A stretch of 64,000 nucleotides of DNA. Source: Anaerolineae bacterium (GTDB taxonomy: Bacteria; Chloroflexota; Anaerolineae; UBA7937). The notes beneath the pieces are model-generated. The model was not told the DNA's origin. It searched no databases and was given only the letters and a program-made list of their open reading frames with translations. Both the position numbers and the translations under genes were made by a program. Numbering within the stretch: the first letter of the stretch is position 1; each line of letters starts with the position of its first letter. The stretch is from positions 1,024-65,023 of the forward strand of contig DAOULQ010000005.1 of assembly GCA_034419095.1 (NCBI GenBank). Reading direction: 5' to 3'. Positions 24,213 to 48,574 of the stretch are shown piece after piece.

Positions 24213-24304
24213 GTCATCTCCTAGCCTCTTCTCATCGTCCTCGACTCTGCGCTAACACAGAACACGGACCGATGACTCCACCCAAACATGCCACGCGCCA
24301 CCTG

Positions 24305-24362
24305 CCAAACCACTTACTGAGTACTGCCTCCTATGCTCCCTTCCCGAATAGACCACTACCCC
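24305..24362 (-). repeat. R2-2 conserved upstream element
   Basis: Plus strand reads CCAAACCACTTACTGAGTACTGCCTCCTATGCTCCCTTCCCGAATAGACCACTACCCC. Lies ~93 nt upstream of the Avs-like start and overlaps the stop codon of the CI-like repressor gene. Confidence 0.8.
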
Positions 24363-25051
24363 TTCATCTTCGCTCTATACGATCCCACTGCGACACCCAG
24401 CACCCGCGCATCTTTCAATCGGAGGATGGGATAACCCTGATTGCCGGCCTGCAAGTGGGGCCCCTTCGCATCCTCTTTGTATATCCTCAACACCACGTCC
24501 TCGTCCTTTCGCGCCACGACTACATCACCAGGCTGAGCCTGACGTTTGGCGTCAACGAAGATCACATCCCCATCCAAGATCCGGCGTTCGATCATCGAGT
24601 CTCCCTTGACGCGGAGAGCGTAGGCACCATCTCGCTTCTTGATCTGTTCAACTGAGCAGGGATAGAACTCCTCGGCTTCGTGTTCTTCTTGCCATTCGGG
24701 GTAGGTGGCGGGGACCGTGCCGATCAGCGGCAGGAAGATCCACTTTCCTGAGTAGGGAAAGACCTCCTGAAGGCGCTTCCGTGTTTCTTCAAGCACCTTC
24801 GTTGCCTTGCGAATTTCAGCCTGGATCTGATTGTCGTAGCTTTCGCGGCCAAGCAAATAGTTAATTGACACAGCATAATGATCGGCGATTTTTTCAAGAT
24901 CCTCAACACCGATCCTTCGGCGGCCAGCTTCATATCCGGCTACGGTTGCTTGGCTGTGGCCAAGATGGGCGGCCAGTTCCTGCTGAGTCTCACCGTACCG
25001 TTCTCTAATGTCCCTGATTCGGCTGCCGATAACTTTGAATCTATCCATCAT
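24356..25051 (-). CDS. CI/LexA-like repressor (XRE HTH + S24 self-cleaving peptidase domain)
   Basis: 231 aa. HTH region TQQELAAHLGHSQATVAGYEAGRR. C-terminal S24 motif LRVKGDSMIERRILDGDVIFV...VVARKDEDVVLRIYK. Confidence 0.85.
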   Translation of the reverse strand: MMDRFKVIGSRIRDIRERYGETQQELAAHLGHSQATVAGYEAGRRRIGVEDLEKIADHYAVSINYLLGRESYDNQIQAEIRKATKVLEETRKRLQEVFPYSGKWIFLPLIGTVPATYPEWQEEHEAEEFYPCSVEQIKKRDGAYALRVKGDSMIERRILDGDVIFVDAKRQAQPGDVVVARKDEDVVLRIYKEDAKGPHLQAGNQGYPILRLKDARVLGVAVGSYRAKMKG

Positions 25052-26132: not shown

Positions 26133-27185
26133 GTGTCCAAGCAAGGCAAGGCGACGAAGATGTTCCCCGGCTTCCGCAAGCCGACCTACACGATGGTCCC
26201 AGATGAGCTATTCGACGAGCTCCTCGCTGACCTGACAGGATCGGAGCTCAAGGTCTTGCTCTACATCACCCGCCGTACCTTCGGCTTCAAAAAAGAAAGC
26301 GACAACATCTCCCTTAACCAGATGCTCTCGGGCATCCGCACCAAAGACGGCCGGATCCTGGACCGGGGAACGGGTCTTGCCAAGTCCACTCTGGTTTCCG
26401 CCCTCAAGAGCCTGGCAGCCAAGAACATCGTCATGGCTGAGAGGCGCAAGAGCGCTAGGCGCGGCTACGAGCCCACCAACTACCGCCTCAACGTCATCAC
26501 CCCTAGTTCGAAAATCGATCAACCCTTGTCCGAAAGCCCTACCAAGCCCTTGGGTAAGAAAGCGGACATACAACAAACAGTTATACAAGATACAGATGAC
26601 AACAATAGTGTTGTTGCTCTTTTGATGAATAGGGGAATAACCAAGCGCACCGCTGCCAGGCTGGCAAGAGAATACCCTGAAGCTCTGATCAGACAGAAGA
26701 TCGAACTTCTTGACTACTTGCAGGAGACCCAAAGCCCGTTGGTGAGAAAAAACCCAGCTGGCTACCTCAGGCGCGCGATCGAGGAAGACTACAAGCTCCC
26801 TAGAGGCTTCAAGACCAAAGCTGAGAGGGAAGCCGAGGCCCGAGAATGGGAAAAGGCCCAAGGCCGGGCTGAACGCGCCCGGAAGGCCCATCGCGAGAAG
26901 ACTGACCGACGAGGTCAGGCGTTCAAGAGATACGGCACTAGCGAGAGGCTGATCTCTTTGTGGCGGGAAGCCCAACAGAGCCTCCAGGCCAGGCTCACCA
27001 AGGCCACCTATGAGACCTACCTCAAAGATGCCGCCCTGCTTAGCCTTGACAACAGCGTGGCGGTTTTAGGCGTCTCTAACCAGTTTGCCCAGGAATGGAT
27101 TGAGGGCCGGCTTGCCAAGATAATCACGCGGGTGCTGGAGGATATCCTCAAAGAACCCCTTGAGCTGAGGGTGGAAGTCTACTGA
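26133..27185 (+). CDS. replication initiator-like protein (N-terminal wHTH replication-protein module + C-terminal DnaA-domain-I-like module)
   Basis: 350 aa. N-terminus TMVPDELFDELLADLTGSELKVLLYITRRTFGFKKESDNISLNQM is typical of phage/plasmid replication organisers. C-terminus ATYETYLKDAALLSLDNSVAVLGVSNQFAQEWIEGRL resembles DnaA_N. Confidence 0.7.
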   Translation: MSKQGKATKMFPGFRKPTYTMVPDELFDELLADLTGSELKVLLYITRRTFGFKKESDNISLNQMLSGIRTKDGRILDRGTGLAKSTLVSALKSLAAKNIVMAERRKSARRGYEPTNYRLNVITPSSKIDQPLSESPTKPLGKKADIQQTVIQDTDDNNSVVALLMNRGITKRTAARLAREYPEALIRQKIELLDYLQETQSPLVRKNPAGYLRRAIEEDYKLPRGFKTKAEREAEAREWEKAQGRAERARKAHREKTDRRGQAFKRYGTSERLISLWREAQQSLQARLTKATYETYLKDAALLSLDNSVAVLGVSNQFAQEWIEGRLAKIITRVLEDILKEPLELRVEVY

Positions 27186-27836: not shown

Positions 27837-28733
27837 TCACGACGGCAGGCTCAAGCCTTTCCGGATGGCTTCAAAGAGATCTTTCCGTCGTTGATACGGA
27901 TCCCTTGCCAACCTTACTTCATCGGGCGATAGATCACGGAGAAAGCGATAGCCCTCCATACACCGTGCAATGACAGTTTCACTCTCAGGTCGACGATCCC
28001 TGCGAATCAACCGTGTCAGGTCACCCCATTCGTAACGGCCCGACCGGATGTTGGCGAAGAACCGATCAGGGTCGAAGGGGTCTCCCACTAACCAGCATTT
28101 GAGGACAGCCACAGTCCGTACTAGGTTGCGATCGAAGGGCATCTGCTGAAACTGGAACAGATCGTAGACATCTCGCGCCGTGGTCCGTTGATACGAAGCC
28201 CTGATCTTCTCGGCAACGATTTCCTCGAAGTGCAAGGTGGTGACCGACGGCGGCTCGATCTCCAACTGCTTGAAATAGGCGTCAACGATCAGGGGCAAGG
28301 TCTGTATTCCTAGGACGGGCTCCTCTCGCAGGCTGACATCAAAGGCAAACTGTGCCGATGGGTTCCACGCGTGGAAGTAGCTCACCCTTGCCCCACAGGC
28401 CTGGCGATCCTCGCGGACGTAGAAGTCTTCGGTCCTAACCGAAAAGGTGATGCCGTAATACGCCTTTCCATCGAAGAGGCCGGCGATGGCCAGGATCAGA
28501 TCTTCGGGGTCGGAGATCTCCGGGGCGGTGAAGTCCAGATCCTCGGAGAACCGCCCAGCCCGCCCCAAGAAAACCTTGCGCATGCAGGTTCCCCCTTTGA
28601 AGATCAACCGCTGCAGCAACCCTCCATCGGCCAGGATGCGCAGAACGTAGGTCAGAACCACATCCCGCTCGGCCACAGGAAGGATCACGCCAGAGCCCCT
28701 GGCGAATAGATCGGCGAACTTCTGCTCCAGCAC
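27837..28733 (-). CDS. AbiEii/AbiGii-family nucleotidyltransferase toxin
   Basis: 298 aa. LIFKGGTCMRKVF...RFSEDLDFT nucleotidyltransferase motifs. GTG start 1 nt after the AbiEi stop. Confidence 0.85.
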   Translation of the reverse strand: MLEQKFADLFARGSGVILPVAERDVVLTYVLRILADGGLLQRLIFKGGTCMRKVFLGRAGRFSEDLDFTAPEISDPEDLILAIAGLFDGKAYYGITFSVRTEDFYVREDRQACGARVSYFHAWNPSAQFAFDVSLREEPVLGIQTLPLIVDAYFKQLEIEPPSVTTLHFEEIVAEKIRASYQRTTARDVYDLFQFQQMPFDRNLVRTVAVLKCWLVGDPFDPDRFFANIRSGRYEWGDLTRLIRRDRRPESETVIARCMEGYRFLRDLSPDEVRLARDPYQRRKDLFEAIRKGLSLPS

Positions 28734-28734
28734 C

Positions 28735-29556
28735 CTAAACGATCCTTATCTCACTCCAAAGCTGCTGCGCCGGGACGTTCACCACTATCTGCCATTTGGA
28801 CTCATAGTCCCCGCCGGTTCCCCACCGGCTGATCGGCCCCAGGTAGGTCTTGGACTTGCCGATGGCCACCAGTAGCTTCGCCGCAAGCTCCTGTGGCAGG
28901 GGGTCGGTCAGGGTCTCCAGCAGGTACCCCAGCCGCTGTGTGAGGGCATGGGACCCCATCCGCAGGGCGTAATCGGCCAGTTTCTCCAAGTCAACCTTGC
29001 TCCGGGCGGAGTGCACCACACGAGCAACCTCTACGATCCCTCCAGCATAGCTCATCTTATCCAGGGAATCCACCACTGCCTTCTCTGGCTCGGCCATCAT
29101 CACCTCGGTGGTATAGACCTTGGTCTCATGGTAGCCGAAGAACTTGGAGGGTGAAAGAGCAACGAACCGGTATTCCACACCTCGGATCTCCATGGGGCGC
29201 TTCGAATGGGTGGTGGCGATGTAGACCGTGGCCGGCACTTGAGGGGTGAAACCATAGAAGTGGTTGGCCGTGGCGTAGGAGTAGTAATAGGGGGCGACGA
29301 GCACACTCCCTGCCAGGAGGGGGTTCATATCCGGGACTGCCTCGCTGCCTCGACTGGCGGGGATAAACTGGTACTTCCCCGGCTCCAGCCGGTCTAGCCA
29401 CCGCTTCTTCTCCAACTGGTGAGCCAGCTTGCGGGCGTGGACATAGGAGCAGCCCAGGATGTCCATCACATCCTGCAGGGTGACCAGCTTCTGCTCCCTC
29501 CACTCGAGCTCCATGACCAGCTTGGACTCCAAATTGGACAGCGTTCGGGACACCAT
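28735..29556 (-). CDS. AbiEi-family antitoxin / transcriptional regulator
   Basis: Start set at MVSRTLSNLESKLVMELEWREQKLVTLQDVMDIL... with AAAGGTGG upstream, giving 273 aa. wHTH N-terminus. The track's 410-aa ORF extends into the REP cluster. Confidence 0.8.
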   Translation of the reverse strand: MVSRTLSNLESKLVMELEWREQKLVTLQDVMDILGCSYVHARKLAHQLEKKRWLDRLEPGKYQFIPASRGSEAVPDMNPLLAGSVLVAPYYYSYATANHFYGFTPQVPATVYIATTHSKRPMEIRGVEYRFVALSPSKFFGYHETKVYTTEVMMAEPEKAVVDSLDKMSYAGGIVEVARVVHSARSKVDLEKLADYALRMGSHALTQRLGYLLETLTDPLPQELAAKLLVAIGKSKTYLGPISRWGTGGDYESKWQIVVNVPAQQLWSEIRIV

Positions 29557-29679
29557 TTTTGAACCACCTTTGTTGTTTGTCTTAAATCGAGTTACTATTT
29601 CAGTAACATCATGCAATATGCTTAACCAATTATATCGCCACCTCCCTCTGTTTGCAAGCCCGCAAGGCAAGGGGTTGTG

Positions 29680-29900
29680 CTCACCAGTCAACGCCTGGCT
29701 CACCTTGCGTAAGTGTTGCTCCCCAGGCTGCCCTCCCCTGCCCTGCCTGTCCTGGCGCTTGACAGGCCAGGGGCACGTGGCAGGCCAGGGACCCTGTCGG
29801 CCTGTCCCGGTACTTGTCAGGCCGGGGGTTCGGCCCAGTCCTGGCGGAAGTGGGCCAGGGGACAGGGCGTGGCAGAGCAGGCAGGACAGGCAGAGAGGAG
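29680..29900. repeat. REP-like cluster (GCCAGGGG / TGTCCTGGC word family)
   Basis: Read directly: ...CCTGTCCTGGCGCTTGACAGGCCAGGGGCACGTGGCAGGCCAGGGACCCTGTCGGCCTGTCCCGG...GGGCCAGGGGACAGGGCG... The same words occur at 11330-11380 and 1428-1790. Confidence 0.7.
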
Positions 29901-30573
29901 AGAACACTCTTCCATAGCTCCTTCGCGAACCGCCGCACCTCCTGGAGAGGAATCTCCTCCAGATCATTCATATTCAACCCATCTCGTGGCAAACTTATCT
30001 TGAGGGTCTTTTCTCCTCCCAGGATCCTGTTAAGGAGACTCCCAGCATTTAGGCCCACCTCCATTTCTAGTGGTGATCTGTACAGAGTGAGCCCATTGCT
30101 TTTTCCCTCTCTGTCAAGTGCCAAAAGTGGCACGCATCCGAAAGCCTAGGGAGGAAGCTTGCCCATCTGAAGAGGCTTCAAGCCTTGTCGACGTGCTAAG
30201 ATTCTAGGGACAAGGAAAGCCCTCCATGTAGAGGGCTTGCACACAGCTCAGATGCATATGTGGTTTTTTGTATCCCCACCCAATTTTCGCGCCTTTAGGG
30301 GCTTCAGAGAGGCTCAAGCGTGGTCAGGAAAGCGTCCTATCACCCCTATCAGCTTGCTTAGGGTTTTGCTGCCCCACCGGTTCGCTCAGGGGCTGCTCAG
30401 AACAACCCTGCCACCTCTGGCAGGCAACTCCCCCCTTCTGGGCAGAGATGACGGATGGTCTCATCTTGGCGCGCTCCCAACGGGCCCATCGTTGGGGAAG
30501 CCGCGAAAGGCGTATTAGGCACTGTGTCCCTGCTCTCTTATCGCGCTGTGCATGGGTGCGGCCAGCTGAGACA

Positions 30574-31533: not shown

Positions 31534-32415
31534 TAGATTTCTCCTATTAGGATTCGATTGACGATAATAACCGCCGAAATGGAATCTAACCGCGCCACAT
31601 GCGGACTCACCCGAATGATGCCAGAAGAGATTGCGCGTGTCAACCGTTACCACTGGCCGGTTGTTTGTCAAACCACCATTAGGCGAAGAAAACGCCCGCG
31701 CGCGGCGACTTTTCCTACCACTAAAGATCGTCAAATTGGTAGTTTGACGAGCGTATTCTCGCCATACTACAAGAGGCTGCCGCCCGAAATCCAGCCCTAG
31801 CTCATCACGAGCGATCTTTTCCTCAAAGACACCTTGGAGTCTTGCAAATCAATATACATGACCACCGAGGGGATGCCAGAAGAGAAGAGGAAATGCTGAG
31901 ATTGACAAGGTAGATGGATATGTATAGCCATGATCGATATGTCCTACCAATAGAGCATCATCATGAGCTTTACCGTGCACTGGACTTCGAAAACCTGATG
32001 CTGGGTTCTTTAGCTAGTGGAAGATGGAGAGGATCACCAGGCGAAGGGACGGCTATCGGTCGAGGAAAGGAGGGGTGTAGTGGGTGTGAGTGGTAATTAG
32101 ATACTATGAGTCTCACCCCTGCTGGGGCTTCTGATTACCCATTTCCTGCAAGGGAGGCATCGCATCTCGCCCCCTCCCGAAGCATCATACGAAATTTACG
32201 CCGCAAAACCCGTTCACAGCGTTGGAGTACCAGAGAGCAACCTATGACCCTGTGGATTCCATAAGAAGAGGTGAGGTGTTTGGGTTGACAAGGGAAATGG
32301 GTATCTATACCCATCATGGATGTATCTTCCCAGGAAAGAATCATTGGAGGTCTTGTAAGGCACTGGGCTTCCACGGTCCAACGTTGTGTTCTGGGGTGAA
32401 TACAGGACGGAGAGC

Positions 32416-32772
32416 CTGGCTGTGCATTCCGCAGAAAGATGGGTTACCTTTCGAGCTGGAACTGTGCCTGGCGTGATCTCTCCAACGCAGTGTGATTGAG
32501 AAGCAAAGGGACAAGGATTCAGGGCGAGAAGATCGAATCTTGTGTTGGCGAAATCTATGCTGAGGCTGTGCGCAAGAAGCTTGTAAGGGTGACCCCGAAG
32601 GTCGCGTTCTGCCTGTTACTTGTGTGAACACCGAACGGACCTAAAAACGATAGGTGTTTGACCTTTACAATCGACACCAGTCTACCACGTGGCCGCAAGA
32701 CTCGCAAGAAGCAAGGCGTAGAAGCAGGAGCCAAGAGTCGCTCCTCTTTCATATGTCAGGAAATGAGCGCAG
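32416..32772 (+). repeat. conserved non-coding leader, copy 1 (paralogue of 46371-46798)
   Basis: The first ~150 nt (CTGGCTGTGCATTCCGCAGAAAGATGG...GGCGAAATCTAT) are ~90+% identical by eye to 46371-46515. More similar blocks follow (CTAAAAACGATAGG..TTGACCTT.ACAATCGA...GTCTACCA.GTG, and a GGAGCC...GCTCC hairpin before the start codon). Confidence 0.8.
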
Positions 32773-33253
32773 ATGAGTGAGGAAGACCTGAAGGTAGTTG
32801 GGGAACTCTTCGACAAGGCAAAGGAGAAGTCTGAGCGGGACGGCTACCTGACACCAGTTCTCTTCGCCTGGGCACCCTGTGGGCGCCTGACAATCAGCTT
32901 CATTGAGGGCAATCTGCGCAACATCTTGCCAAGTACGTGCCACACGCTACGGCTCTCGGGCTATGATAGGTTCGCCCTGATAATCGAGGGGTGGATCGTT
33001 CTGGGAGAAGAGAACCTCCAAAGACATCGAAAGCTGGGTAGGAAGGATGCAAGAGCAGCCAAAGGTACAAACCTCTATCCAGATCATCTTTGTTAGCCCA
33101 GAAGAGACCTTTGGCAAGTTTGCCATCTATGATGAGACCCAGGGCGGTTGGGTTCTGCTCAAAGAAGTAGAAAGCACGCCAGATTGGAGCCTCGCTGGTG
33201 TCTTGATAGATGCCACAAAGGGAGGCGTAGATCGAGAACACAAAGAGGAATAA
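32773..33253 (+). pseudogene. frameshifted paralogue of the 159-aa protein at 48059-48538
   Basis: ORFs 32773-33096 and 33047-33253 together align to the whole 159-aa protein. There is one extra C at ~33018-33019 (AACCTCCAAAGAC versus AACCTCAAAGAC). Confidence 0.8.
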
Positions 33254-33289
33254 GGGATCTTTCAGAAGCAGAACCCAACAAGGCAGAGC

Positions 33290-33500
33290 GTGAGAACAGG
33301 AAAAGGCTAACGAACCCCCTCCGTCCTCACTCGAACCCATAAACCAGCCTTATCACCGTATCAGAGCCTCTCTCACCCGTTCTCTCAGGCGATTCTTGGG
33401 GGTAGACAGGAGCCATGGGGCCAGGTGTGATCTCAAGGGTCTAAGCGGGTCTTCATATGATCTTATGCCTAGAAAGAACGTGGCAATGGGAGGGCAGACG
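33290..33500 (+). repeat. R3 dispersed repeat, copy 1 (intact, shows the empty IS110 target)
   Basis: ...CCGTCCTCACTCGAACCCATAAACC...CTCTCTCACCCGTTCTCTCAGGCGATTCTTGGGGGTAG...GTGATCTCAAGGGTCTAAGCGGGTCTT... aligns with 60840-60914 + 62596-62775 and with 59830-60085. Confidence 0.75.
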
Positions 33501-33722
33501 GACTGGGAGAATAGTCATAGTAGGCCACCATCAAGATGGCAGTTCTGCTCCGGGAGCAGGGTTTGCTGGCGCAATCAGCACAATCCGGATACGAGAGGAG
33601 GCAGTTCCTGCCACAAGTAGCAATCGGGAGCCCTGTTATCAATGTGTCTGACGCATGAACTCATGGTACTAAGAGAGAACGGGAGGCCGAAGTCCATTGG
33701 CGGATACCACAAGCATTCCGGC

Positions 33723-36700
33723 TCATGATCGTTTGGCTTCAGGGAAGACGACATACGTGCCATCCTCGACTATCCTTCCATCATTGAGTAGCTCCATGAC
33801 AATATGGTCTACAACAGCGTTCATGTCACTCGTAGTACGCTTGAACCCAAATAGTTTGCATACTTCATTCGGAATCATTTCGCGCTGTATCCCATAAGAG
33901 GCTCCGACAACCTTCGATATCGCTAATTCAATCTCTTCTGGCGCTATCAAGCGAATATGTCGTGATGCATTGGGCAGGCCTGATCTTGAACGAAGCTTCG
34001 GCTGCTTCATACCCGGTCGCCAGAGGAACGGTCCCCTTCCAATTACGAAACCCTCATCAATAGCAGCTCTCAAACCCAGCTCAAAGGTTGTCCGAATTCG
34101 CCTTCCAATTCGCTTAACCCCTGCGCAGTTCGCAATCCGTCTGGCCACTTCGTCCTGGTGAACAGGGCTTTCAGTATCAACCACGTCTTTGATCCAAGCG
34201 GCCATTCGGCGCCGCGAAACTTCATGCAACTGCTCTCTGTAGTATAAGGTAATGTTCGGCTTCGCTGTCTTGTATGGCTCAGAATCAAGGGCAGGTCTTT
34301 TGGCCATTCCTGGCTTGTGCCTCTCGATTGGTGGTGCTCGTTGAACGTGACTGTGTGGCGAACTCATTTCGGACTGCGCCTCAGATGCGCGGTGTCCCTT
34401 GGCTGCCTCAATGCCTTTTTCTAGTCGCTGCATCTCTCGTCCAGGATTGCGAAACCAATCCGTGCTCCAAATTCGATGAATCTGCCAGCCTAAGTTTTCT
34501 AGCACTTCTTGTCGTAGACGATCTCGATCTCGGGCTGACCTTGCGCTGTGGTAGGTTGCGCCATCGCATTCAATGCCAAGCAAGTACCTTCCCGGTTGGT
34601 CCTCATCAACAATCGCGAGATCAATGAAGAACCCTCCGGTTCCAACCTGATGTTCCACTCGATGGCCCAATTGCCTTAGTCTGGCTGAGACAGCTTCTTC
34701 AAACGGGGATTCGACCTCTCCTCCAGAAGGTATAGGAATATCAAGATAACCTGTGTCGGCGTATTTCAGGAATCTCTTCAAGACTTCAACACCTCTAGCT
34801 CTTGTCTTACCTAGGTCTATGTCGTCGGCCTTTAGATTCGTGAATACTTCGCATCGCTTTCGAGCCCTTGTGATTAGGACGTTTAGTCGACGTTCTCCCC
34901 CCTCATGATTCAGCGGACCGAAATTCATGCTCACTCGACCGTCGCTAGTTCGTCCATAGCCCACACTTATGAAAATCACGTCACGCTCATCACCCTGAAC
35001 GTTTTCTAGATTCTTGACGAAGAACGGCTCTTCCGGATGGCTACGGAAGAATTCCTCGCAGGATACATCCTGGCGCCGACCTATCTCAAGTTGGTCCCGA
35101 ATAGCCTCTGTTTGGCTAATACTAAAAGCAGCTACTCCTAACGTAAGGTCAGGGGAGGTTTTTGCGTGGCGCATGATCGCCTCGGCAACCTTCTTGGCTT
35201 CTCCTAGATTTTTGCGACTCTTTCCTCGGTCATACTCCGTATTAGGCAGATAATGATAGAAAAGCCCCACTTCTCTCTTGCCCTTGTCAGGACTAGGGAA
35301 TACAACTAACTTGTTGTGATAAAACTCGTAGTTGGAAACGGTAATCAAGGATTCATGTTGGCTCCTGTAGTGCCAACGAAGCATTCTTTGAGGGATTCCT
35401 TGAGCGACAGATAGACCCAATATGCTCTCAAGGTTGACTGGTTCGCTCTCAGAGTAATCCTCATCCACATCGATCACAGTTTCAAAAAAAGGTGTCGGAG
35501 GGAGTTGGCGATCATCTCCAACAACCACCACCTGCGTTCCTCTCAAGATCGCGCCAAACGCATCAACAGGTTTCACCTGACTCGCCTCGTCAAAGATGAC
35601 CATATCGAAATCTACTGTGTCGGGGGGCAAGAACTTGGCAATCGAAAGTGGGCTCATCATAAAGACCGGCTTCACGACTTGGATGACGTTCCCGGCCTCC
35701 TGCATCAGTTTCCTGATCGGTCTATGACGCCGTTTCTTTGCGAACTCATAATACAGGACACCAAGCTGACCACTAGCTCGATGTTTGGGTAAGGTCTTCC
35801 AATGGTCATAGGCTAGTTGAACACGATTCTGGTCTAGTAATCTCGTATCCAATTCGCAAAACTTCCTCATGGAGAGTTCATGGATTTCACCATCGAAATC
35901 CCGCAATATCGGACGCTCTACCCATGCTCTTTCAAGCAACATGCTTAACCATGTATGTTGGAGGAGATCAACAAGGTGGCGGTGTGCAAGCGGCCATGAA
36001 AGTGAGGTTTCTACAACGCTCTCAAGACCTGTCTCATCTAATTGGCGTGCTAGGCCCCTCAGCGCTATGATTTCTTGTAAACGGTCTAGCTCATTTAGCC
36101 AGTTCTTGAGATGGTTGTCCTGCTCCTTCAAAGGAAGGTCGATGAGCGTCTTGCCCTCTCCAAATCTCATCGACTGATCAAGTTCAAGGCTTTCGATTGC
36201 TTCTTGAGTTGCATTCTCGTGCCCTGCAAGCTTGCTTCTCAATTGAGCGTTCTCTTGTTCAAGGACCGATGAGCCGGCCAAGGTGGCGACGAAGTCTACA
36301 ATCTGAGTTGGCAGTTCGCCTTCATTGATCTTCCTGTGCAATCCTGCAAGCCAACTCGAAATGCCAATTAACTCTTCCCAGTTTGATTGGACGCCTCGCC
36401 ATCTTGCACCAAAGAGATCGCTTGCTTCTTCATTGAAATCTTCTACAGTAGGGGTTAACCTATTGACTTCGAGGATTGCATCAAGAATCTCAAGCTGGCG
36501 GTCGCTGGACTTCGGCAGATCCTTCGTGCAAAGATCGGCCAGTCTTGTCTTAGCTTCCCGGTAACTCCTCGATAGTGTGCGCCACCACTTTGGCCCATAA
36601 TGAGCAATCAAGCCACGGAGCTCCAGGACGTCCTCATCCCATGACTCATCTCTTACGATCTTGTCGTACACGTCGTGCAGGCACTTGATCCTGTGGCCAG

Positions 36701-38510
36701 CTTCTAGGGTCCTCTCAATTTCACTCGCTTTTGCTCCCCAGACTTCTGAATCAACTTTCACCCTCTCCAAATTCGGGGCACTCAAGACAAAATGCGACGT
36801 CTCTAGCATAGTCTTGATCTCAGCTGTTGATGCTGCCTCAGGCAGAAGCAGGAGTTCAGAGACTTCTCTCGAATTGTATCGAAGATCATCAAGTGATTGT
36901 ACTGCATTTGATAACTGCTCTCGAATATGATCCTTCTTGGCCGGAAGGAGGATAGAAACTTGACTTCCCCAAAAAGGGTGGTCAACAGGTCGTCCGATTT
37001 TGTTTATGAAAAGCTGAAGCTCCTCGACCAAGGACAGATTCTCATGGACTTCTTCACTTGTCCAAGTATCCACCGCGCTTATCTCGAGCTTAGGGAGTTC
37101 TATCCCGGAAAGAATCTCTTTGATTTGGATTAGACGACCATATACTTCATAGGGTGTTAATCTACTATCGCCAATCTCTGCATTTACCGCTTTGCTATAG
37201 CCATTCAACCTGGCCTGATGCCGTATCAACTGCTTTGTGTCAACAGGCGCGCCAAGCTTGGGTTGACCCAGTTCTAAGGATCGCTTCAGTTCATCTAGCA
37301 CGATTCTTTTCTTTGTCTTTTGGCTATGCAGTTCTAGGCATGCGTCTCCGAGGCCTACTTGATCCAACCGACGCTTGACTACTTCAAGTGCTGCCATTTT
37401 CTCTGACACAAACAGGACGGTTTTCTCATGACCAATCGCTTCCGCGATTAGGTTGGTTATCGTCTGCGATTTTCCTGTGCCTGGCGGGCCTTGGATGACC
37501 AAATTCCGCCCCTTATTGACTTCGAGAATGGCCAGTATCTGCGAGCTATCCGCATCGACAACATGATGGATTTCTTCTGGAGAGACGTGCGTATCGATCT
37601 CGATTTCATCATTGAATTCCAGCCTGGATCCATCGAACCCATCAAGTGATAGTAGGCTGCGTAGAATTGGATGTCTTTCTGGCCTTGATTCCTCTGACCA
37701 ATTGTTCGAATCAAGATCGTTGAACATCAAGAACTTGCCAAAGGAGAAGAAGCCCAGGGCAACCGCCTTCGTATCCACTTCCCATCTTGGATAATCCCCA
37801 ATCGCCTTTGATATCTCTTGAAAATATGAATTGATGTCGATGTCCTCCGCCTCAGGGAATTCCGGGAGCTTGATCCCAAAATCCGATTGGAGTTTCGCTC
37901 GTAGCGATAGATTCTCGTCAATATCGTCCCCCGAATACCGAACGCGAAATCTCGACCGCACGTTCGATCGGCTAGGCTCAACAGGGACAAGGATAAGCGG
38001 GGCCTTGCGGACATCATCGCTTGATGGAGACTCATACCAATGAAGCATGCCAAGAGCCAGGAATAGTATGTTCACACCCTGCTCTTCTATATAAGTGCGC
38101 GCGGCGTAGTACGTATTCAGTAGACGTCTTTGAAGTGCTTGCGATATATACGGGCTTTGTAGCTTATTATCCATGTGTCGAAGGGCAATTCCGTTCTCAT
38201 CTTCCTCCGGCTGTCCCAAACCTTCGATGATGATGTCTTGCTCCTCTCGAAACAGGGCCTGTTGATTACCCTTCTCTTGTTCTTCCTCAGGGATCGACAA
38301 GAAGGACATTGAACGTCCTTCATTCACCAGAATCCGAAATACTTCGGTGGGAAGCTCATCGATAATTTCAACACCTTTCGTCTTCAGCGGCCTATAGTTC
38401 AGGAGCTTGTTCCGAAGGCTGAGATCGAGAAGGTCTTTGCGTGCGTCATCGAGCGTTGCTCTAACAGGATCTTCGGTTTCCTCGATTGTGGGTATCTCTT
38501 GCTTCTGCAT
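33723..38510 (-). CDS. Hhe-type giant: DUF4011 + Upf1-like SF1 helicase + Vsr/DUF559 endonuclease + DUF3320-like C-terminus
   Basis: 1595 aa. Helicase motifs VIQGPPGTGKSQTITNLI and MVIFDEASQV, then VGDDRQLPP. Vsr-like fold GIECDGATYHS...RDRDRLRQEVLENLGWQIHRIWSTDW. Confidence 0.85.
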   Translation of the reverse strand: MQKQEIPTIEETEDPVRATLDDARKDLLDLSLRNKLLNYRPLKTKGVEIIDELPTEVFRILVNEGRSMSFLSIPEEEQEKGNQQALFREEQDIIIEGLGQPEEDENGIALRHMDNKLQSPYISQALQRRLLNTYYAARTYIEEQGVNILFLALGMLHWYESPSSDDVRKAPLILVPVEPSRSNVRSRFRVRYSGDDIDENLSLRAKLQSDFGIKLPEFPEAEDIDINSYFQEISKAIGDYPRWEVDTKAVALGFFSFGKFLMFNDLDSNNWSEESRPERHPILRSLLSLDGFDGSRLEFNDEIEIDTHVSPEEIHHVVDADSSQILAILEVNKGRNLVIQGPPGTGKSQTITNLIAEAIGHEKTVLFVSEKMAALEVVKRRLDQVGLGDACLELHSQKTKKRIVLDELKRSLELGQPKLGAPVDTKQLIRHQARLNGYSKAVNAEIGDSRLTPYEVYGRLIQIKEILSGIELPKLEISAVDTWTSEEVHENLSLVEELQLFINKIGRPVDHPFWGSQVSILLPAKKDHIREQLSNAVQSLDDLRYNSREVSELLLLPEAASTAEIKTMLETSHFVLSAPNLERVKVDSEVWGAKASEIERTLEAGHRIKCLHDVYDKIVRDESWDEDVLELRGLIAHYGPKWWRTLSRSYREAKTRLADLCTKDLPKSSDRQLEILDAILEVNRLTPTVEDFNEEASDLFGARWRGVQSNWEELIGISSWLAGLHRKINEGELPTQIVDFVATLAGSSVLEQENAQLRSKLAGHENATQEAIESLELDQSMRFGEGKTLIDLPLKEQDNHLKNWLNELDRLQEIIALRGLARQLDETGLESVVETSLSWPLAHRHLVDLLQHTWLSMLLERAWVERPILRDFDGEIHELSMRKFCELDTRLLDQNRVQLAYDHWKTLPKHRASGQLGVLYYEFAKKRRHRPIRKLMQEAGNVIQVVKPVFMMSPLSIAKFLPPDTVDFDMVIFDEASQVKPVDAFGAILRGTQVVVVGDDRQLPPTPFFETVIDVDEDYSESEPVNLESILGLSVAQGIPQRMLRWHYRSQHESLITVSNYEFYHNKLVVFPSPDKGKREVGLFYHYLPNTEYDRGKSRKNLGEAKKVAEAIMRHAKTSPDLTLGVAAFSISQTEAIRDQLEIGRRQDVSCEEFFRSHPEEPFFVKNLENVQGDERDVIFISVGYGRTSDGRVSMNFGPLNHEGGERRLNVLITRARKRCEVFTNLKADDIDLGKTRARGVEVLKRFLKYADTGYLDIPIPSGGEVESPFEEAVSARLRQLGHRVEHQVGTGGFFIDLAIVDEDQPGRYLLGIECDGATYHSARSARDRDRLRQEVLENLGWQIHRIWSTDWFRNPGREMQRLEKGIEAAKGHRASEAQSEMSSPHSHVQRAPPIERHKPGMAKRPALDSEPYKTAKPNITLYYREQLHEVSRRRMAAWIKDVVDTESPVHQDEVARRIANCAGVKRIGRRIRTTFELGLRAAIDEGFVIGRGPFLWRPGMKQPKLRSRSGLPNASRHIRLIAPEEIELAISKVVGASYGIQREMIPNEVCKLFGFKRTTSDMNAVVDHIVMELLNDGRIVEDGTYVVFPEAKRS

Positions 38511-39023
38511 TGGCTTGGTCCCTGTTGTTACGTTCTCACTATTGCACCCATCTTTGAGCCTGCAACCATGACAGCATACCGAGTAGTTGAGTGCACTCGA
38601 TAAGCCATAGATACAATGCGAAGCGAATGCCGCCTAACTATTCGTGCTGCCGAACCCTTTCGGCCTGGCCGCTCAGTCTTGGTAGATGGAAGAGTTCCAG
38701 CACAGCACCCTCACCGGGGTGCATTGTTTCCACATTTTGCTCATAGAAGCCAAACTCTGAACTCAAACACAAGGCCGACCCCCTCCTAGCATTGGCCAGG
38801 CAGACAGTCGGCTTCACATTCACGCTATCACCTCCCACAACGCTCTATTGCGATGATCCTGCGATGTGAGTGCTTGCCAGGTCTTCTCTTCCCATTCTAC
38901 CATAGCCGCAGGGGCAAATCAATGGGCATAGAACGGTAAGACGCCCTTCCATCCCCTCTGGAACGCGTGAGCGACCAGCCACACCACGCCGCGCCCTCTC
39001 CACACCCTACCGCTCGCCTCTCA

Positions 39024-39081
39024 CCAAACCACTTACTGTCTATTGACGCCTATGCTCCCTTCCCGACTCAACTACGACCCC
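39024..39081 (-). repeat. R2-3 conserved element
   Basis: Plus strand reads CCAAACCACTTACTGTCTATTGACGCCTATGCTCCCTTCCCGACTCAACTACGACCCC. Lies 70 nt downstream of the PIN stop and ~510 nt upstream of the Hhe start. Confidence 0.8.
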
Positions 39082-39151
39082 AAGGATGCACACTGATCGC
39101 AATCGCTTGATTTCAGAAGATCCTCATGTGTTCTGTGTTCTTGTCCAGTTG

Positions 39152-40246
39152 TTACTCGAGCTTCTTGCCGATGGATACGAAGTCAACCGACGTTACTTCG
39201 CTCGTAGCCGGGTCAAAGGTCATCTCTACTTCCATGTCGAGCCATCTTGAGGTACGCACTTCAACATGGTAGCGATCCCAATCATGATCTGGGACCTCAG
39301 GAGCGTCCCGGCCCCTCATTGCATAGTAGTCCGCTCTTGAAACAAGAACGGAGAACTCACATTCTACAGGCACCAGAACATAAAGTAGGAACTCGCCGGA
39401 ATGAAGCTCGCGGACATCCAATACATGGGGGGGCTCTGAGTCTGAAACGCCTGCTAGACGCAATCTCTCGAATGTCGAAGGAAATCCCAGTTTAGCGGGG
39501 TCCCAGCGGGCATCACTCATAGCGTAAGGCAAGCGGCTAACGACGACAGCCACTTCTTTCCACAGATCAAGTCCAGGATATCGGCCGCCCGCAATCCGCT
39601 GGCGTATGTCCTCCAGAGCCTCCATCGTAGGTTTGATATGTTCGTCCACGAATTCCCTTAGGCTGCCAAACAGAACAATTCGACCAGATTGGATGCCTCT
39701 CACCTCCATGTCGGCAACCAAGTCGGGATGGAGATTGCCCTCGTCATCGCAGAAGTCCTGCCTGTTTGCGGAAATGAACCCGATGTCCTGGCCCGGCCTG
39801 GCACCGAGATCGATGACATTTTCCCAGATTAGAGCGTCTCGATAGCCCGCGTCGCCTCGTGAGAAGGGCTTCCTTCGATTTAGTGCGCGCTTAACAATCT
39901 CTTCGTGGGGGATACTGGGGTAGTCCATAATAGTCGCTCCAGCCTGTGCAAATCGAGACGGCAACATTTGGCTGTAGTCTTCGACCAGACTATCAATGTC
40001 GGCATCGGTGAGAGGGGATTCGATCTCCGTACCGCTGAGTCTTCGAGCCTTGTCGAGCGACCCTTCGATTCTGCGCTGGCAATCACGTAGCCTCTCTGCG
40101 TACTTGTTCGTAGTCTCATCGATGACAAGTTTTGGGATGTGGAGCGAGTGATCGGCCCGAGGCAGGCCATCGAACAACACCCGAAATGGGCTACCAGACA
40201 TTGGGAAGTCTTGGCATATAATATTGGTGTCGAGGACTATTCGCAT
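39152..40246 (-). CDS. PIN-like nuclease domain protein (DUF4935-like) with C-terminal unknown domain
   Basis: 364 aa. MRIVLDTNIICQDF (first PIN acidic residue), with later YRDALIWENVI and FISANRQDFCDDEG acidic motifs. Confidence 0.65.
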   Translation of the reverse strand: MRIVLDTNIICQDFPMSGSPFRVLFDGLPRADHSLHIPKLVIDETTNKYAERLRDCQRRIEGSLDKARRLSGTEIESPLTDADIDSLVEDYSQMLPSRFAQAGATIMDYPSIPHEEIVKRALNRRKPFSRGDAGYRDALIWENVIDLGARPGQDIGFISANRQDFCDDEGNLHPDLVADMEVRGIQSGRIVLFGSLREFVDEHIKPTMEALEDIRQRIAGGRYPGLDLWKEVAVVVSRLPYAMSDARWDPAKLGFPSTFERLRLAGVSDSEPPHVLDVRELHSGEFLLYVLVPVECEFSVLVSRADYYAMRGRDAPEVPDHDWDRYHVEVRTSRWLDMEVEMTFDPATSEVTSVDFVSIGKKLE

Positions 40247-40276: not shown

Positions 40277-40316
40277 CTTCTCACCTATGGTCCCTTCCCG
40301 AATAGAGTACCACTCC
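40277..40316 (-). repeat. R2-4 conserved upstream element
   Basis: Plus strand reads CTTCTCACCTATGGTCCCTTCCCGAATAGAGTACCACTCC. Lies ~30 nt upstream of the PIN start. Confidence 0.75.
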
Positions 40317-40616
40317 TATCATCAACACAACGGGCTCGCCCGCCAGGTGGGCAGACAAGCCCATGTATCCGTTGCGATTGCCAGGTATCTGCTGCAACCC
40401 CTGGCCTTGGCCTCGAAGGCTAGGTGCAAGCCACGAGGCTTTTTCTATTCTTTTCCGCAACCATTCTAGCGTGGCTTTCAAGCGATGTCAACAGTGCAGC
40501 AGCGCCGAATGACCAACGGAAGGGCTACCACTCTCACCACCCGCGAGGCCGTTTTCGCCGTCCAGAGGCGGCCCTTACCTCAACGAAGTTCTGCCGCCAA
40601 CGAAGAACCCAATCCC

Positions 40617-42833
40617 TCAGACAGTTCTGATGTTGGAGCTCTTTTCCGTAGATGATCGGCTAGCTACCTTCTGCCTCAGATAAGTATACCTACGTTGAAC
40701 CTCATTGTTCCTCACCGCAATGGCGATGGCCTTCTTCGTCCCCACGAGCACCGCCAGCTTCTTTGCTCTGGTTATGGCCGTATACAGTAGGTTCCTCTGC
40801 AGCATCACGTAGTGCTGAGTCAGAATGGGGACCACCACGGCTGGATACTCGTTGCCCTGGGATTTGTGGATGGAGATAGCGTAGGCCAACACCAGGTCAT
40901 CGAACTCGCTCCAATCGTAGCCGATCCGCCTGCCATCGAACTCCACCCACATCTGTTGGACTTCCAGATCAACTTGGGCTATTCTACCGATCTCGCCGTT
41001 GAAGACCTCCTTCTCATAATTGTTGCGTATCTGCATCACCTTGTCTCCGAGCCTGAACCTTCTCCCTCCTCTGACCATCTCCTCCCCAGCCGGATTGAGC
41101 AGGTTCTGAAGCTCCCTGTTCAGATTGCCCACGCCAACCACCCCTCTGTGCATGGGAGTGATCACCTGGATCTCATCCAGAGGGTTTAGGCCGAAAGCCT
41201 CAGGTATCCTCTCGGCGCAGAGTTGTTTGATGGTTTTCAAGGCCATCTCTGGATCTTCCCTCTCGATGAAGTAGAAGTCCGATAGCCCTTCACCTGCACG
41301 ATCGGTTCGTGGGAACTCTCCTCTGTTGACCCGGTGGGCGTTGACGACCAGCAGGCTCTTTTGAGCTTGCCTGAAGATCTCGGTCAGCCTAACCGTCTCC
41401 ACGGTGCCCGACTCGATGATATCCCTGAGGACGTTGCCCGGCCCCACCGAGGGAAGCTGATCCACGTCGCCCACCAACACCAGCGTCGCTGAGGGTGGTA
41501 TCGCCTTCAGCAGGTGGTTCATGAGCAGGATATCCACCATGGAGGCCTCATCGATGACCACCAGGTCCGCCTGCAGGGGCTTCTTGTCGTTCCTCTTGAA
41601 CTCGGCTTCGCGAGGGCTGTATTCCAATAGGCGGTGGATGGTCTTGGCCTCCCTACCCGTAACCTCCGCCAGCCTCTTGGCTGCCCTGGCGGTGGGAGAA
41701 GCCAGAACTATGCGTTGCCCCTTCTTCTCCAGTATCCGGATCAGGCTGTCCACCAGAGTCGTCTTGCCCGTGCCAGGCCCCCCGGTCAATACCAAGACCT
41801 TCCCCTCTATCGCCTTCCTGATCGCTTCCTTCTGCATCTCAGCCAGCTCGACCTCAGTCTGCTCCTGGACCCACTCGATGGAGGCTTCAACATCGATCTG
41901 CAAGAGCTGCTTTGGCCATCTAAGGAGGTCCCGTAGTCTGCTCGCTGTGTTCTCTTCTGCCACACGCAAGGGCGTGAGATACACAACCTTGGCACCCTTC
42001 CACTCCTCGATCGTCACCTTCTCCTGGCGGGCGAGAGAGTCCAACGCACCTTCCAAGATCCCCCTCTCTATCTCCAAGGTCCTCGTTGTCTTCTCCAGCA
42101 ACTGATCCTGGGGGTAGCAAACGTGCCCTTCGTCGACCAACTGACTCAGGGAGTAGAGCAGGCCAGCCTCAGCCCTGATCCGGGAGTGGGGATCGATCCC
42201 CATGTTCTGAGCGATCCTGTCGGCGGTCTTGAACCCTATGCCAGATATCTCCGTTGCCAGGCGGTATGGGTTCTCCTTGACGACGACAATCGCCTGGTTA
42301 CTGTAGCGCTTGTAGATCTTCACCGCATACGAGGTGTTCACCCCACAGCCCTGGAGGAAGATCAAAACTTGCCTGATCTCCTTCTGCTCCTCCCAGGCCC
42401 TGGTGATGCGCTCGCTCCTGATTGGGCCGATGCCGTCCACCTCCAGCAGCCGCTCAGGCTCCCCTTCGATGACGTCTAGAGTCTCTAGCCCAAAGCACTC
42501 CACCAGCCTCTTAGCCATGATGGGTCCGATGCCCCGGATCAGCCCTGAGCTGAGATACTTTTGGATCCCGGTGAGTGTGGCAGGCTGCATGGATAGCCAG
42601 CTCTCTACCCTGAACTGCTCCCCGAACTTCTTGTCGACCACCCACCTGCCTTCCAACCTCAAGCTCTCGCCAGGGTTGACCCCCGGCATGTGGCCCACCA
42701 CTGTCACCAGATCCTTCTGTCCCTCCACCTGAAGTCTGGCCACGGTGAAGCCGTCTTCCTCGTTGAGGTACACTATCCTCTCCAGGACCCCTTGTACAGT
42801 TGATTGGTCTCTAGCTTGTGCCATATCTTGCAT
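40617..42833 (-). CDS. recD2: RecD2-type SF1B ATP-dependent DNA helicase
   Basis: 738 aa. N-terminal OB/HhH region, LTGGPGTGKTT (Walker A), VIDEASMVD, and the C-terminal SH3-like/2B region typical of RecD-like helicases. Confidence 0.88.
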   Translation of the reverse strand: MQDMAQARDQSTVQGVLERIVYLNEEDGFTVARLQVEGQKDLVTVVGHMPGVNPGESLRLEGRWVVDKKFGEQFRVESWLSMQPATLTGIQKYLSSGLIRGIGPIMAKRLVECFGLETLDVIEGEPERLLEVDGIGPIRSERITRAWEEQKEIRQVLIFLQGCGVNTSYAVKIYKRYSNQAIVVVKENPYRLATEISGIGFKTADRIAQNMGIDPHSRIRAEAGLLYSLSQLVDEGHVCYPQDQLLEKTTRTLEIERGILEGALDSLARQEKVTIEEWKGAKVVYLTPLRVAEENTASRLRDLLRWPKQLLQIDVEASIEWVQEQTEVELAEMQKEAIRKAIEGKVLVLTGGPGTGKTTLVDSLIRILEKKGQRIVLASPTARAAKRLAEVTGREAKTIHRLLEYSPREAEFKRNDKKPLQADLVVIDEASMVDILLMNHLLKAIPPSATLVLVGDVDQLPSVGPGNVLRDIIESGTVETVRLTEIFRQAQKSLLVVNAHRVNRGEFPRTDRAGEGLSDFYFIEREDPEMALKTIKQLCAERIPEAFGLNPLDEIQVITPMHRGVVGVGNLNRELQNLLNPAGEEMVRGGRRFRLGDKVMQIRNNYEKEVFNGEIGRIAQVDLEVQQMWVEFDGRRIGYDWSEFDDLVLAYAISIHKSQGNEYPAVVVPILTQHYVMLQRNLLYTAITRAKKLAVLVGTKKAIAIAVRNNEVQRRYTYLRQKVASRSSTEKSSNIRTV

Positions 42834-44786: not shown

Positions 44787-45367
44787 GGTAGATTCGTAGC
44801 ACCTCCCGATAGGCTCAACAACGACTTCGAACTGTAGGAGTGACAACCCCATCATAGCGTATCCTCACAAAGGATTCAAGGACTCTAGAGGTGGGCCTCA
44901 CCAGTCAAGTGCACGTGTCAACTGCAATCGAATTCTACTACTCGCAAAGGCGTGAAGAGAGGCGGCACCTCCTACTTCATAGATGTTGTCCAGAGAAGGC
45001 AGCCCAGACCTGCTCTTGTGTCACTGCCGAGGTCTGCTTCCTACCCACGAGCACCTCTGCGTTGAGGCTGGCCGCGACACCAGCCGTCCTTTGTCTTGTG
45101 CGAGTACCAGACTTGGCCGTTCTTCTCTCGACGCTTCATCCTCATACCCCCCCTTTTTTCCTGTGGATGGGGGCACCAAGAGAGGTCTACGGGCTTCTCC
45201 CTGGCCCTAGTAACGCCAGGACGGGCTGAGGGCTCGTGGGACGCCTTCTGGGAGTTGTGGTCGATAAGAAGTTGTCAGTTGCCCCGCTAACTCGCTGTAA
45301 GGGCTCTTCTGTGCGTCCCTCGGGTCCTCTTTCTCATTTCTGCCCATGCCTCGCCAGTGGGGATGTT

Positions 45368-45392
45368 GTCCCTCGGGATCCCTGTGGGAAAG
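45368..45392 (+). repeat. REP-like word GTCCCTCGGGATCCCTGTGGGAAAG (copy A)
   Basis: Related copies at 45443-45467, 45652-45677, 45825-45848 and 46165-46182, and outside the region at 1684-1708. Confidence 0.7.
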
Positions 45393-45442
45393 GCGATGTT
45401 GCTTACCTGGCTATCGCTGTTGGCAGCCTCGATAGCCTCGCG

Positions 45443-45467
45443 GTCCGTCAAGGATCCCTGTGGGAAA
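45443..45467 (+). repeat. REP-like word GTCCGTCAAGGATCCCTGTGGGAAA (copy B)
   Basis: See copy A. Confidence 0.7.
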
Positions 45468-48034: not shown

Positions 48035-48058
48035 GCCGCTAACAAGAAAGGAGGCCAA

Positions 48059-48538: not shown

Positions 48539-48574
48539 GGGATTCGCGCAAATGAGTGTCATGTAGGTAGAGCA

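Follow-up and report, generated by a model that had tools for sequence, protein, structure and literature searches.

Two kinds of described mobile system come close to the DNA reported here. The comM gene is targeted by Tn6022/AbaR (Tn7-like) and by Tsy, a tyrosine-recombinase transposon that uses TnsF; insertion is directed by TnsF to a stretch of 10 bp within comM's Walker B motif, and Tsy makes circular intermediates via its tyrosine recombinase (PMC10293859). The second kind comprises the Campbell-type elements, that is, prophages, integrative and conjugative or integrative and mobilizable elements (ICEs/IMEs) and genomic islands in protein genes. We analyzed a stretch of 64,000 nt from an Anaerolineae bacterium of the Chloroflexota (assembly GCA_034419095.1, contig DAOULQ010000005.1, positions 1,024 to 65,023; "the window"), which carries two copies of a leader-and-gene module. 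Our preferred interpretation, which we hold to be probable, is that both are decaying copies of a horizontally mobile module, or of the att-proximal end of one, that integrates site-specifically into comM; as a class it is a site-specific integrative element and no new class of RNA. The module would consist of a leader, an optional radical SAM gene of the SPL family, a gene for a 159-aa orphan protein and a tail of ∼75 nt, and would circulate in an uncultured Anaerolineales lineage with the comM codons GGHN(V/I)L, before Walker A, as its target.

Between copy 1 (w1, 32.4-33.5 kb) and copy 2 (w2, 46.4-48.6 kb) a repeat finder and self-BLAST gave four collinear matches, lying at 32.4-33.3 kb and 46.4-48.6 kb: a 147-nt block in direct repeat (32412-32558 vs 46367-46513, 94% identical), module A (32608-32717 vs 46509-46618, 78%), a hairpin region (32726-32784 vs 46752-46810, 80%), and the small gene with its tail (32757-33328 vs 48043-48611, 81%). 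An earlier reading made from the letters alone (the sequence-only reading) had reported a leader repeated at two loci, with a nearly identical first ∼150 nt, further conserved blocks, and a hairpin just 5′ of the ribosome-binding site (RBS). Each of these points holds: leader, small gene, and tail are shared over 32412-33328 and 46367-48611, and the hairpin has a 10-bp stem in w2 and a weaker one in w1. The same reading saw a 159-aa open reading frame (ORF) in both copies, which is intact in w2 and is split in w1 by a 1-nt insertion near 33019, and an R3 repeat downstream of both, of which the full form follows w1 only; w2 retains the first ∼15 nt of R3, a hairpin half resembling repetitive extragenic palindromes (REP-like), and the downstream part common to the two copies is the ∼75-nt tail (33254-33328 vs 48539-48611). 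The extra leader of w2, estimated at ∼125 nt, measures 133 nt (46619-46751) and is not in w1. Two further suggestions failed: the supposed third trace at 60.69-60.91 kb is an R3 fragment only (60842-60914), with no leader and no gene, and a coding-like relic in the leader (WLCIPQKDGLPFELELCLA and a stop) is unsupported, as the leader-spanning ORFs have no Pfam match. In the pairwise alignment the left edge of the 147-nt block is sharp, at ...CTGGCTGTGC. The parts of the two copies are as follows.

32416-32467, plus strand: w1 segment X, the first third of the 147-nt block, read as a diverged module B copy (GGTTACCTTTCGAG.TG.AACT).
32468-32558, plus strand: w1 segment b1b, which makes up the remainder of the 147-nt block, 94.5% identical to 46423-46513.
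32559-32607, plus strand: 49-nt leader segment, in w1 and locus L005, deleted in w2.
32608-32717, plus strand: w1 module A, conserved core 32627-32717, a leader module of P-arm type.
32726-32747, plus strand: w1 hairpin H, weakened stem (AGGAGC with GCTCCT), then a degraded RBS.
32773-33253, plus strand: w1 small gene, now a pseudogene (frameshift of +1 nt near 33019).
33254-33328, plus strand: w1 3′ tail (D1), ending in the REP-like hairpin half CCCCCTCCGTCCTCAC.
33313-33512, plus strand: R3 repeat 3′ of w1, an independent interspersed repeat of ∼200 nt.
46255-46371, plus strand: w2 upstream non-coding segments, U (46255-46329) and C (46330-46371).
46371-46513, plus strand: w2 147-nt block, X (46371-46422) and b1b (46423-46513).
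46514-46660, plus strand: w2 module A (46514-46618) and linker (46619-46660), the putative P arm of an attP-type junction.
46661-46673, plus strand: w2 core CCACAACATCCTG, homologous to comM codons (G)HN(I/V)L, the putative crossover point.
46674-46749, plus strand: w2 module B, the putative P′ arm, beginning GTGTTATAGATGCAATATTAGGTTACCTTTCGAGGTGCAACTCGAATTAG.
46750-46798, plus strand: w2 hairpin H (10-bp stem, 46750-46773) and RBS GAAAGGAGG, 5′ of the radical SAM gene.
46799-48034, plus strand: SPL-family radical SAM gene, 411 aa (Pfam PF20903, 2.9e-24).
48059-48538, plus strand: intact gene for the 159-aa orphan protein, the w2 small gene.
48539-48625, plus strand: w2 3′ tail (D1), with the REP-like hairpin half at 48600.
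48708-49223, minus strand: adjoining w2, a truncated tyrosine integrase that has just the N-terminal SAM-like domain.

The comparison set was made up of 26 metagenome loci obtained by protein search and of contigs from an exact-protein look-up (loci and proteins are numbered L and P), to which a module-A pattern added one GTDB species representative, the uncultured Anaerolineales metagenome-assembled genome (MAG) CAZERB01, with three copies of module A. The w2 sequence itself is present, without differences, in the sample SRR14802572. Four parts recur in a conserved form from genome to genome, namely module A (∼91 nt), module B (∼90 nt), hairpin H with its RBS, and the 3′ tail. Module A starts AACACCGAACCAACCTAAAAACGATAGGTGTTTGACC and is 84-92% identical in 15 loci in a gap-free alignment (median divergence K=0.20); module B, from its start GTGTTATAGATGCAATATTAGGTTACCTTTCGAGGTGCAACTCGAATTAG, is 80-94% identical in 10 loci. 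They are combined as A-H, B-H, or A-B-H, the radical SAM gene being present or absent in each arrangement, and the module occurs in unrelated genomic contexts and in several copies per genome, the window having two.

The evidence for integration comes from four types of junction that share a core of 12-13 nt, CCACAAYRTSCT, with the crossover right after CT (marked by a slash below). The attL type is found in L003, L010, and L048, where comM is truncated at ...GGHNVL and followed directly by GTGTTATAGATGC, that is, by module B, the hairpin, and the radical SAM gene; in L003 and L010 the ChlI/Mg_chelatase ORF (comM/yifB) is 231 aa long and ends ...EVAAAGGHNVLVL and a stop. The attR type is found in L037, where module A and a 110-nt linker end CCACAACATCCT and continue as TACGAGCGGGCCGCC, the 3′ half of comM (Pfam Mg_chelatase positions 23-93, 3.6e-25), a reciprocal junction at the same codon. 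The empty site, attB, is read through by the intact comM relatives P0188, P0258, and P0273, and its DNA in L045 is CCACAACGTGCTC/ATGAGTGGG, with comM uninterrupted (site sequence CCACAACGTGCTCATGAG). The attP-type arrangement, A-linker-CCACAACATCCTG/GTGTTATAG-B, is present in w2 (46514-46749), L007, L011, L019, L022, L023, and partly in L036. The core joins B to other left partners too: in L030 the partner is R3, and in L013 it is an unrelated flank. On the Mg_chelatase profile the comM break falls at position ∼22/23, just 5′ of Walker A.

Element and host gene differ in age at this site. When L048 is compared with L003, the comM side is 68.8% identical (synonymous divergence dS 1.39; ratio of nonsynonymous to synonymous divergence dN/dS 0.17) and the element side 89.2%, with 92.8% over B and the hairpin and a dS of 0.245 in the radical SAM gene. 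The element is thus far less diverged than the host comM (dS 0.245 vs 1.39), which argues for horizontal movement to the same site. Among the best 120 Chloroflexota comM homologues, ∼30 stop or diverge within 4 aa of GGHN[VIL][LM], the broken proteins including P0189-P0191, P0198, P0200, P0204, and P0224. A large serine recombinase gene (510-523 aa) abuts the comM break in L047 (10001-12161) and L049 (5169-7326), which marks the site as a recombinase hot spot.

On the basis of these junctions, module A and the linker would act as the P arm, the core CCACAAYRTSCT as the crossover region, and module B as the P′ arm, leading into the hairpin and the RBS of the operon. Integration would place B-hairpin-operon against the 5′ half of comM (attL) and A-linker against its 3′ half (attR), with recombination presumably catalyzed by a recombinase supplied in trans. 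Copy w2 would then retain an uncut A-linker-core-B junction, either of attP type or internal to a tandem array, and w1 would be a decayed derivative that has lost the core, B, and the radical SAM gene and whose small gene is frameshifted. Modules A and B may also carry the promoter and 5′ untranslated region (UTR), and the hairpin may serve as a 5′ stem-loop of the mRNA or as a palindromic operator. A and B+H have diverged by K ∼0.20, or ∼0.4-0.6 of dS, a rate at which a regulatory role of A, B, or the hairpin is plausible.

The proposed element resembles Campbell-type elements in that its attB, attP-type, attL, and attR sites share a short core, its target is a conserved stretch of codons, it is less diverged than its host gene, and its immobilized copies decay; tandem accretion, as in such elements, could explain attP-type junctions in chromosomes. 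It differs from them in having no linked recombinase gene, in a recognizable conserved unit of only ∼2.3-3 kb with two cargo genes, in an att site placed within the cargo operon's own 5′ leader, and in attL and attR not having been seen on one contig. With Tn6022 and Tsy it shares the target, the Mg-chelatase-like AAA+ ATPase gene comM/yifB split into 5′ and 3′ parts around the element, and the idea of anchoring on a conserved ATPase motif. The module's break, however, is directly 5′ of Walker A and not in Walker B, its host phylum is Chloroflexota, and no TnsA/B/C, TnsF, YRec, or HTH genes were seen beside it in the locus gene tables. The serine-recombinase elements of L047 and L049 break comM within ∼3-4 nt of the same position, but they have a Resolvase+Recombinase gene at the junction (and L047 a Prim-Pol/D5 primase gene as well), an element side (ATGTATTGGACG...) unrelated to module B, and no radical SAM/159-aa pair.

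Loss of the radical SAM gene recurs among the copies. The gene is present only in w2 of the window, where the sequence-only reading took it to be inserted; the comparative data suggest instead that it was deleted from w1. Copies without it are polyphyletic in the small-gene tree, relics of its 3′ end persist in L011, L020, and L034, and its presence is polymorphic at single loci (L035 vs L034, L003 vs L010). At the H-gene junction of copies without it, H is followed by TCAGGAAAGGAGG and then by the spacer normally found 5′ of the small gene, as would be expected if the two GAAAGGAGG RBSs of the operon had recombined with each other; w1 would probably have lost its gene by this route. Decay is seen in the small gene as well, with frameshifts or premature stops in w1, L004, and L014 and truncation in L017-L024, and the radical SAM gene of L034 is 5′-truncated. 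The w1 small gene, 82-84% identical to that of w2 in nucleotides, now forms ORFs at 32773-33096 (107 aa) and 33047-33253 (68 aa); removal of one C restores the 159-aa frame, with changes at otherwise invariant residues. Its dN is 0.144, vs 0.102 in the other copies, at equal dS, and its RBS is degraded.

Hairpin H follows the state of the genes. In w2 it reads AGAGGAGCCA-AGAG-TGGCTCCTCT (46750-46773), with a perfect 10-bp stem; among the loci the stem is intact where the genes are intact and degraded at pseudogene loci, and the loop is variable. In L007 (1459-1482) the loop is reverse-complemented, ACTCTT instead of AAGAGT, the whole palindrome being flipped. Small hairpin inversions are known from organelle genomes, and the L007 flip resembles them. 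Since the loop is free to vary and is inverted in L007, H behaves less like a specific aptamer than like a DNA palindrome or a generic stem-loop at the 5′ end.

Both cargo genes are under purifying selection: in the small gene dN/dS is 0.30 and dS 0.34, and in the radical SAM gene dN/dS is 0.20 and dS 0.50. Within the SPL family the radical SAM protein is a distant member: it scores 86 bits against the Pfam SPL domain (cutoff 27) and 87.3 bits against the equivalog TIGR04070, whose cutoff of 400 is not reached. Like SplB, it has the SPL domain and a CxxxCxxC motif (CPYDCSYC), and it has relatives at 40-51% identity in Clostridia and Desulfotomaculia. Unlike SplB, it falls far below equivalog cutoffs, has an N-terminal extension of ∼140 aa, and occurs, as do its distant relatives, in integrase/methyltransferase/helicase islands and not in sporulation or repair contexts; two of the three distant relatives examined sit among integrase/methyltransferase or helicase genes. 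The distant relatives in Clostridia and Desulfotomaculia have no small-gene partner beside them. Searches of Pfam, NCBIfam, PADLOC, and PHROG gave no match for the 159-aa protein. Its close relatives, ∼50 at >73% identity, all come from sediment or groundwater metagenomes or Chloroflexi MAGs, and a hidden Markov model (HMM) search of 1.84e9 representative proteins gave only 16 hits, these being fragments and a few weak relatives of ∼160 aa without domains. Its AlphaFold model (pLDDT 72) had no match in a fold search of the PDB; in BFVD it matches eight uncharacterized phage proteins (TM 0.49-0.64, E 6e-6 to 4e-4), one of them from Mycobacterium phage Catdawg.

A number of observations weigh against integration into comM as the explanation. 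No recombinase gene is linked to the module, and none lies within 4-10 kb in L003/L028, L007, L013, L030, or L035. The attL and attR junctions are on separate contigs in different genomes and were never seen on one contig, and the single attR example (L037) has a comM 3′ half that is frameshifted downstream. The P-arm sequence beside the core varies among subfamilies, and A and B are constrained only moderately (K 0.20 vs dS 0.34-0.50). The attP-type junctions lie inside long linear chromosomal contigs, the window included, and not in circles, and tandem accretion or secondary insertion is therefore needed. A search for comM in the window found none, and for this reason both copies are best read as immobilized fossils, w2 with its genes still intact. 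No module copies were found in 2.9 million viral contigs by a protein scan and two DNA-pattern scans. As for the 147-nt block, segment X was matched to module B by nhmmer and blastn (b1 positions 29-53, in w2 and six loci), but the similarity is solid over ∼26 nt only, and a left block edge at the crossover point is therefore suggestive at most; L013 carries GGGGGAT..TGGCTGTGC contiguously, which argues against CT/GGCTGTGC, the left boundary of X and the edge noted in the sequence-only reading, being a junction. The integrase fragment at 48708-49223 is not conserved beside the module (absent from L003, L007, L013, L030, and L035) and matches only the N-terminal SAM-like domains of XerC/XerD-type recombinases. 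We considered an insertion of w2 into an integrase gene and rejected it, as there is no C-terminal integrase part upstream.

Some of these points would be expected if w1 and w2 belonged to an ordinary paralogous operon family, segmental duplicates in which the leader is promoter plus 5′ UTR and the comM junctions are incidental rearrangements. The missing linked recombinase fits such a family, as do ordinary metabolic genes as neighbors in L007, L013, L030, and L035, purifying selection on both genes, and the placing of A, B, and the hairpin like a promoter, 5′ UTR, and RBS that evolve more slowly than synonymous sites. We nevertheless consider it unlikely. Incidental rearrangement does not readily give one comM break point in three loci from two hosts that differ by dS 1.39 when the element differs by 0.25, a reciprocal junction in L037, the joined junction in seven loci, and a core with several left partners. 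The w1-w2 identity is also uneven, and no promoter of sigma-70 type on the gene strand passed the scan in either leader. Two promoters read by hand, TTGCAC-17-TATAGA in B and TTGACC-17-TCTACC in A, were rejected because they fail the −10 criteria.

A narrower version of the integrative interpretation is that the module of ∼2.5-3 kb is itself a two-gene hitch-hiking cassette without a recombinase, with attP in its own 5′ leader, moved in trans by the recombinases of co-resident comM-targeting elements. We offer this idea tentatively and give it a low probability. If true, integration would swap the upstream control region of the operon: A would lie upstream in the A-core-B state, and the promoter and frame of comM would run into B once integrated.

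The unevenness of the w1-w2 identity deserves separate treatment. Mismatches number 9 in 147 positions of the block and 101 in 609 positions of the other aligned segments (Fisher p=7e-4), where identity is 81-85%; the observation that the block is more alike than the adjacent gene is thus confirmed, and a segmental duplication of uniform identity does not describe the two copies. The block is absent from ∼20 related loci (every other locus with upstream sequence) except L005, whose match is partial, covering the 3′ half to two-thirds at ∼64% identity, and conservation of the block outside this genome extends to that match alone. Segment b1b, 94.5% identical between w1 and w2, is ∼64% identical to L005 in each. 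The w2 small gene, by comparison, is closest to L005 (87.5%, vs 83% to w1), and so is the w2 tail (87.9%, vs 59% to w1). This incongruence between the histories of block and gene points to intragenomic gene conversion: the block would be a local, genome-specific patch, homogenized between paralogous leaders rather than held by selection, and would appear better conserved than the gene for that reason. The suggestion that the block is the end of a mobile unit is supported for modules A and B and the 13-nt core and not for the 147-nt block specifically. Upstream of the block in w2, segments U and C are neighbors in L030 too, C is also in L005, and C is partly duplicated at 46444-46477.

The block had also been read as a functional RNA, and more generally the leader could hold a structured cis-regulatory RNA or small RNA, for example an aptamer of riboswitch type in which the hairpin would act as a terminator or anti-Shine-Dalgarno expression platform. 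Points in its favor are a long leader (350-430 nt), TCTTTCATAT after the hairpin, with a terminator-like flag in w1, complementarity of the hairpin 3′ arm CUCCUCU to the RBS AGGAGG, and, by our reading, four substitutions in the predicted long stem of the block that retain pairing via G-U. Rfam, however, gave no hit at the gathering threshold in the whole window and, with the limit relaxed to E≤10, nothing credible in 32000-33700 or 45900-46860. RNAalifold found compensatory changes at 0 of 26 pairs for B+H (10 sequences) and 1 of 37 for A+H (8 sequences), a comparison of low statistical power in that the sequences are ∼10-20% diverged and the H stem is invariant among loci with intact genes. 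Single-sequence folds of the block and of R3 are no better than shuffles (z=−0.24 for the block plus strand), with the exception of the block minus strand, which folds better (z=−2.57). The block is also missing from the other genomes, A and B are unrelated and interchangeable, with loci that have A only, B only, or both, and the inverted loop in L007 is a better fit to a DNA palindrome. Taken together with the junction set, which makes attachment-site arms and a core the better explanation of the block-like signal, these results leave an RNA element very unlikely.

Equally improbable is another non-autonomous transposable unit (IS200/IS605-type, palindrome-associated transposable element or PATE, or integron-like cassette) with the A left edge (GTTGC...AACACCGAAC) and the REP-like hairpin of the tail as its ends: the A boundary does recur within ∼15 nt against at least six upstream sequences and the right boundary at CCATCCTCAC, hairpins lie near both ends (AACACC...GGTGTT and GCCCCTTCC...GGAAGGGGC), and there is no visible target-site duplication or terminal inverted repeat, but the locus gene tables show no TnpA, TnpB, or IntI gene near any copy, the REP-like hairpin stands alone at many unrelated places and is not module-specific, homology 5′ of A fades gradually in several loci with no stop at a single nucleotide, no conserved target motif was recognized, and the modules are not arranged in integron-like cassette arrays.

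Two dispersed repeats adjoin the module. R3, of ∼200 nt, is an interspersed repeat with several copies per genome in the lineage; it is not specific to the module, has no Rfam match, and in RNAalifold (11 sequences) has essentially no consensus structure (−0.5 kcal/mol). Its other copies in the window are at 59830-60044, 60842-60914, and 62594-62701, and further copies are in L003 (8573-8751), L020 (7414-7561 and 8995-9208), L022 (1697-1827 and 5839-6015), L030 (2983-3181), L034 (351-473 and 1784-1907), and L038 (859-975). L034 has lost the leader together with the 5′ portion of its radical SAM gene, and an R3 copy lies at the break. The REP-like element is a GC-rich hairpin, GCCCCTTCC-ATCCTCACC-GGAAGGGGC, dispersed in intergenic DNA, and its first half ends the 3′ tail of the module and begins R3. 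It is found in the window at 33317 and 48600, and in L030 (2622-2650), L037 (minus strand, ∼470-500), L003 (5882-5907), L007 (2048-2073), L011 (254-286), L022 (7677-7732 and 14040-14077), L034 (633-688), L023 (912-938 and 2888-2947), and L020 (9250-9284 and 15591-15653). That this hairpin upstream of A implies a minimal circle was considered and rejected, as it is dispersed on its own.

Several further repeats were noted in the window. In the ∼1.9 kb 5′ of w2 (44.9-46.8 kb), where five ORFs were tested and had no Pfam match, a motif of ∼24 nt resembling TCCGTCAAGGATCCCTGYGGGAAA occurs in four copies (∼45365, 45444, 45653, and 45825, within 45365-45850). At 46230-46306 a perfect 12-bp inverted repeat (CTAGGGTGCGCG and CGCGCACCCTAG) encloses the tRNA T-loop-like GTTCGAATCC, and part of this segment (U, 46255-46329) recurs 5′ of the small gene in L030. 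Inside the island described below, the genes for the repressor, PIN, and RecD2 adjoin another short intergenic repeat family (24291-24374, 39010-39093, and 40284-40328; 72-78% identical). At 9342-9552 on the minus strand a T-box leader (103 bits) is present, 5′ of a 922-aa ORF (6602-9370) that is presumably an aminoacyl-tRNA synthetase; this housekeeping context indicates that the contig is chromosomal. Copies w1 and w2 are within an island (∼13200-49300) of defense and phage-like genes beside tRNA genes, with the following neighbors.

9783-11638: tRNA-Phe, tRNA-Pro, and tRNA-Arg genes, beside the island.
14422-15990: HATPase protein, in the island.
16181-19477, minus strand: Eco57I/MmeI-type methylase (restriction-modification), in the island.
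24356-25051: CI/LexA-like repressor, in the island.
26133-27185: phage Rep-O/DnaA_N protein, in the island.
27837-29967: AbiEii/AbiEi pair, in the island.
33723-38510: 1595-aa PDC-S37/Hhe-like helicase-nuclease, in the island.
39152-40246: PIN_12 protein, in the island.
40617-42833: RecD2, in the island.
43785-44855: HD+OB protein with weak Cas3-HD similarity, in the island.

These results bear on how conserved non-coding DNA is read. A sharply bounded non-coding block that outdoes its gene in conservation can stem from recombination history, through att arms or gene conversion, and not necessarily from RNA function. For the Chloroflexota, they highlight the codons before Walker A of comM as a recurrent integration site, where about one in four of the best-matching homologues is broken; it serves at least two unrelated types of element, and it is distinct from the Walker B site of Tn6022 and Tsy. 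If the cassette interpretation were true, the module would be a new kind of hitch-hiking cassette, and comM of Chloroflexota would have a second hot spot, beside Walker A. The cargo is an SPL-like enzyme with an orphan protein, under selection yet repeatedly lost, a pattern typical of cargo related to conflict or defense, and the radical SAM/159-aa pair is an unstudied cargo and a candidate for functional study.

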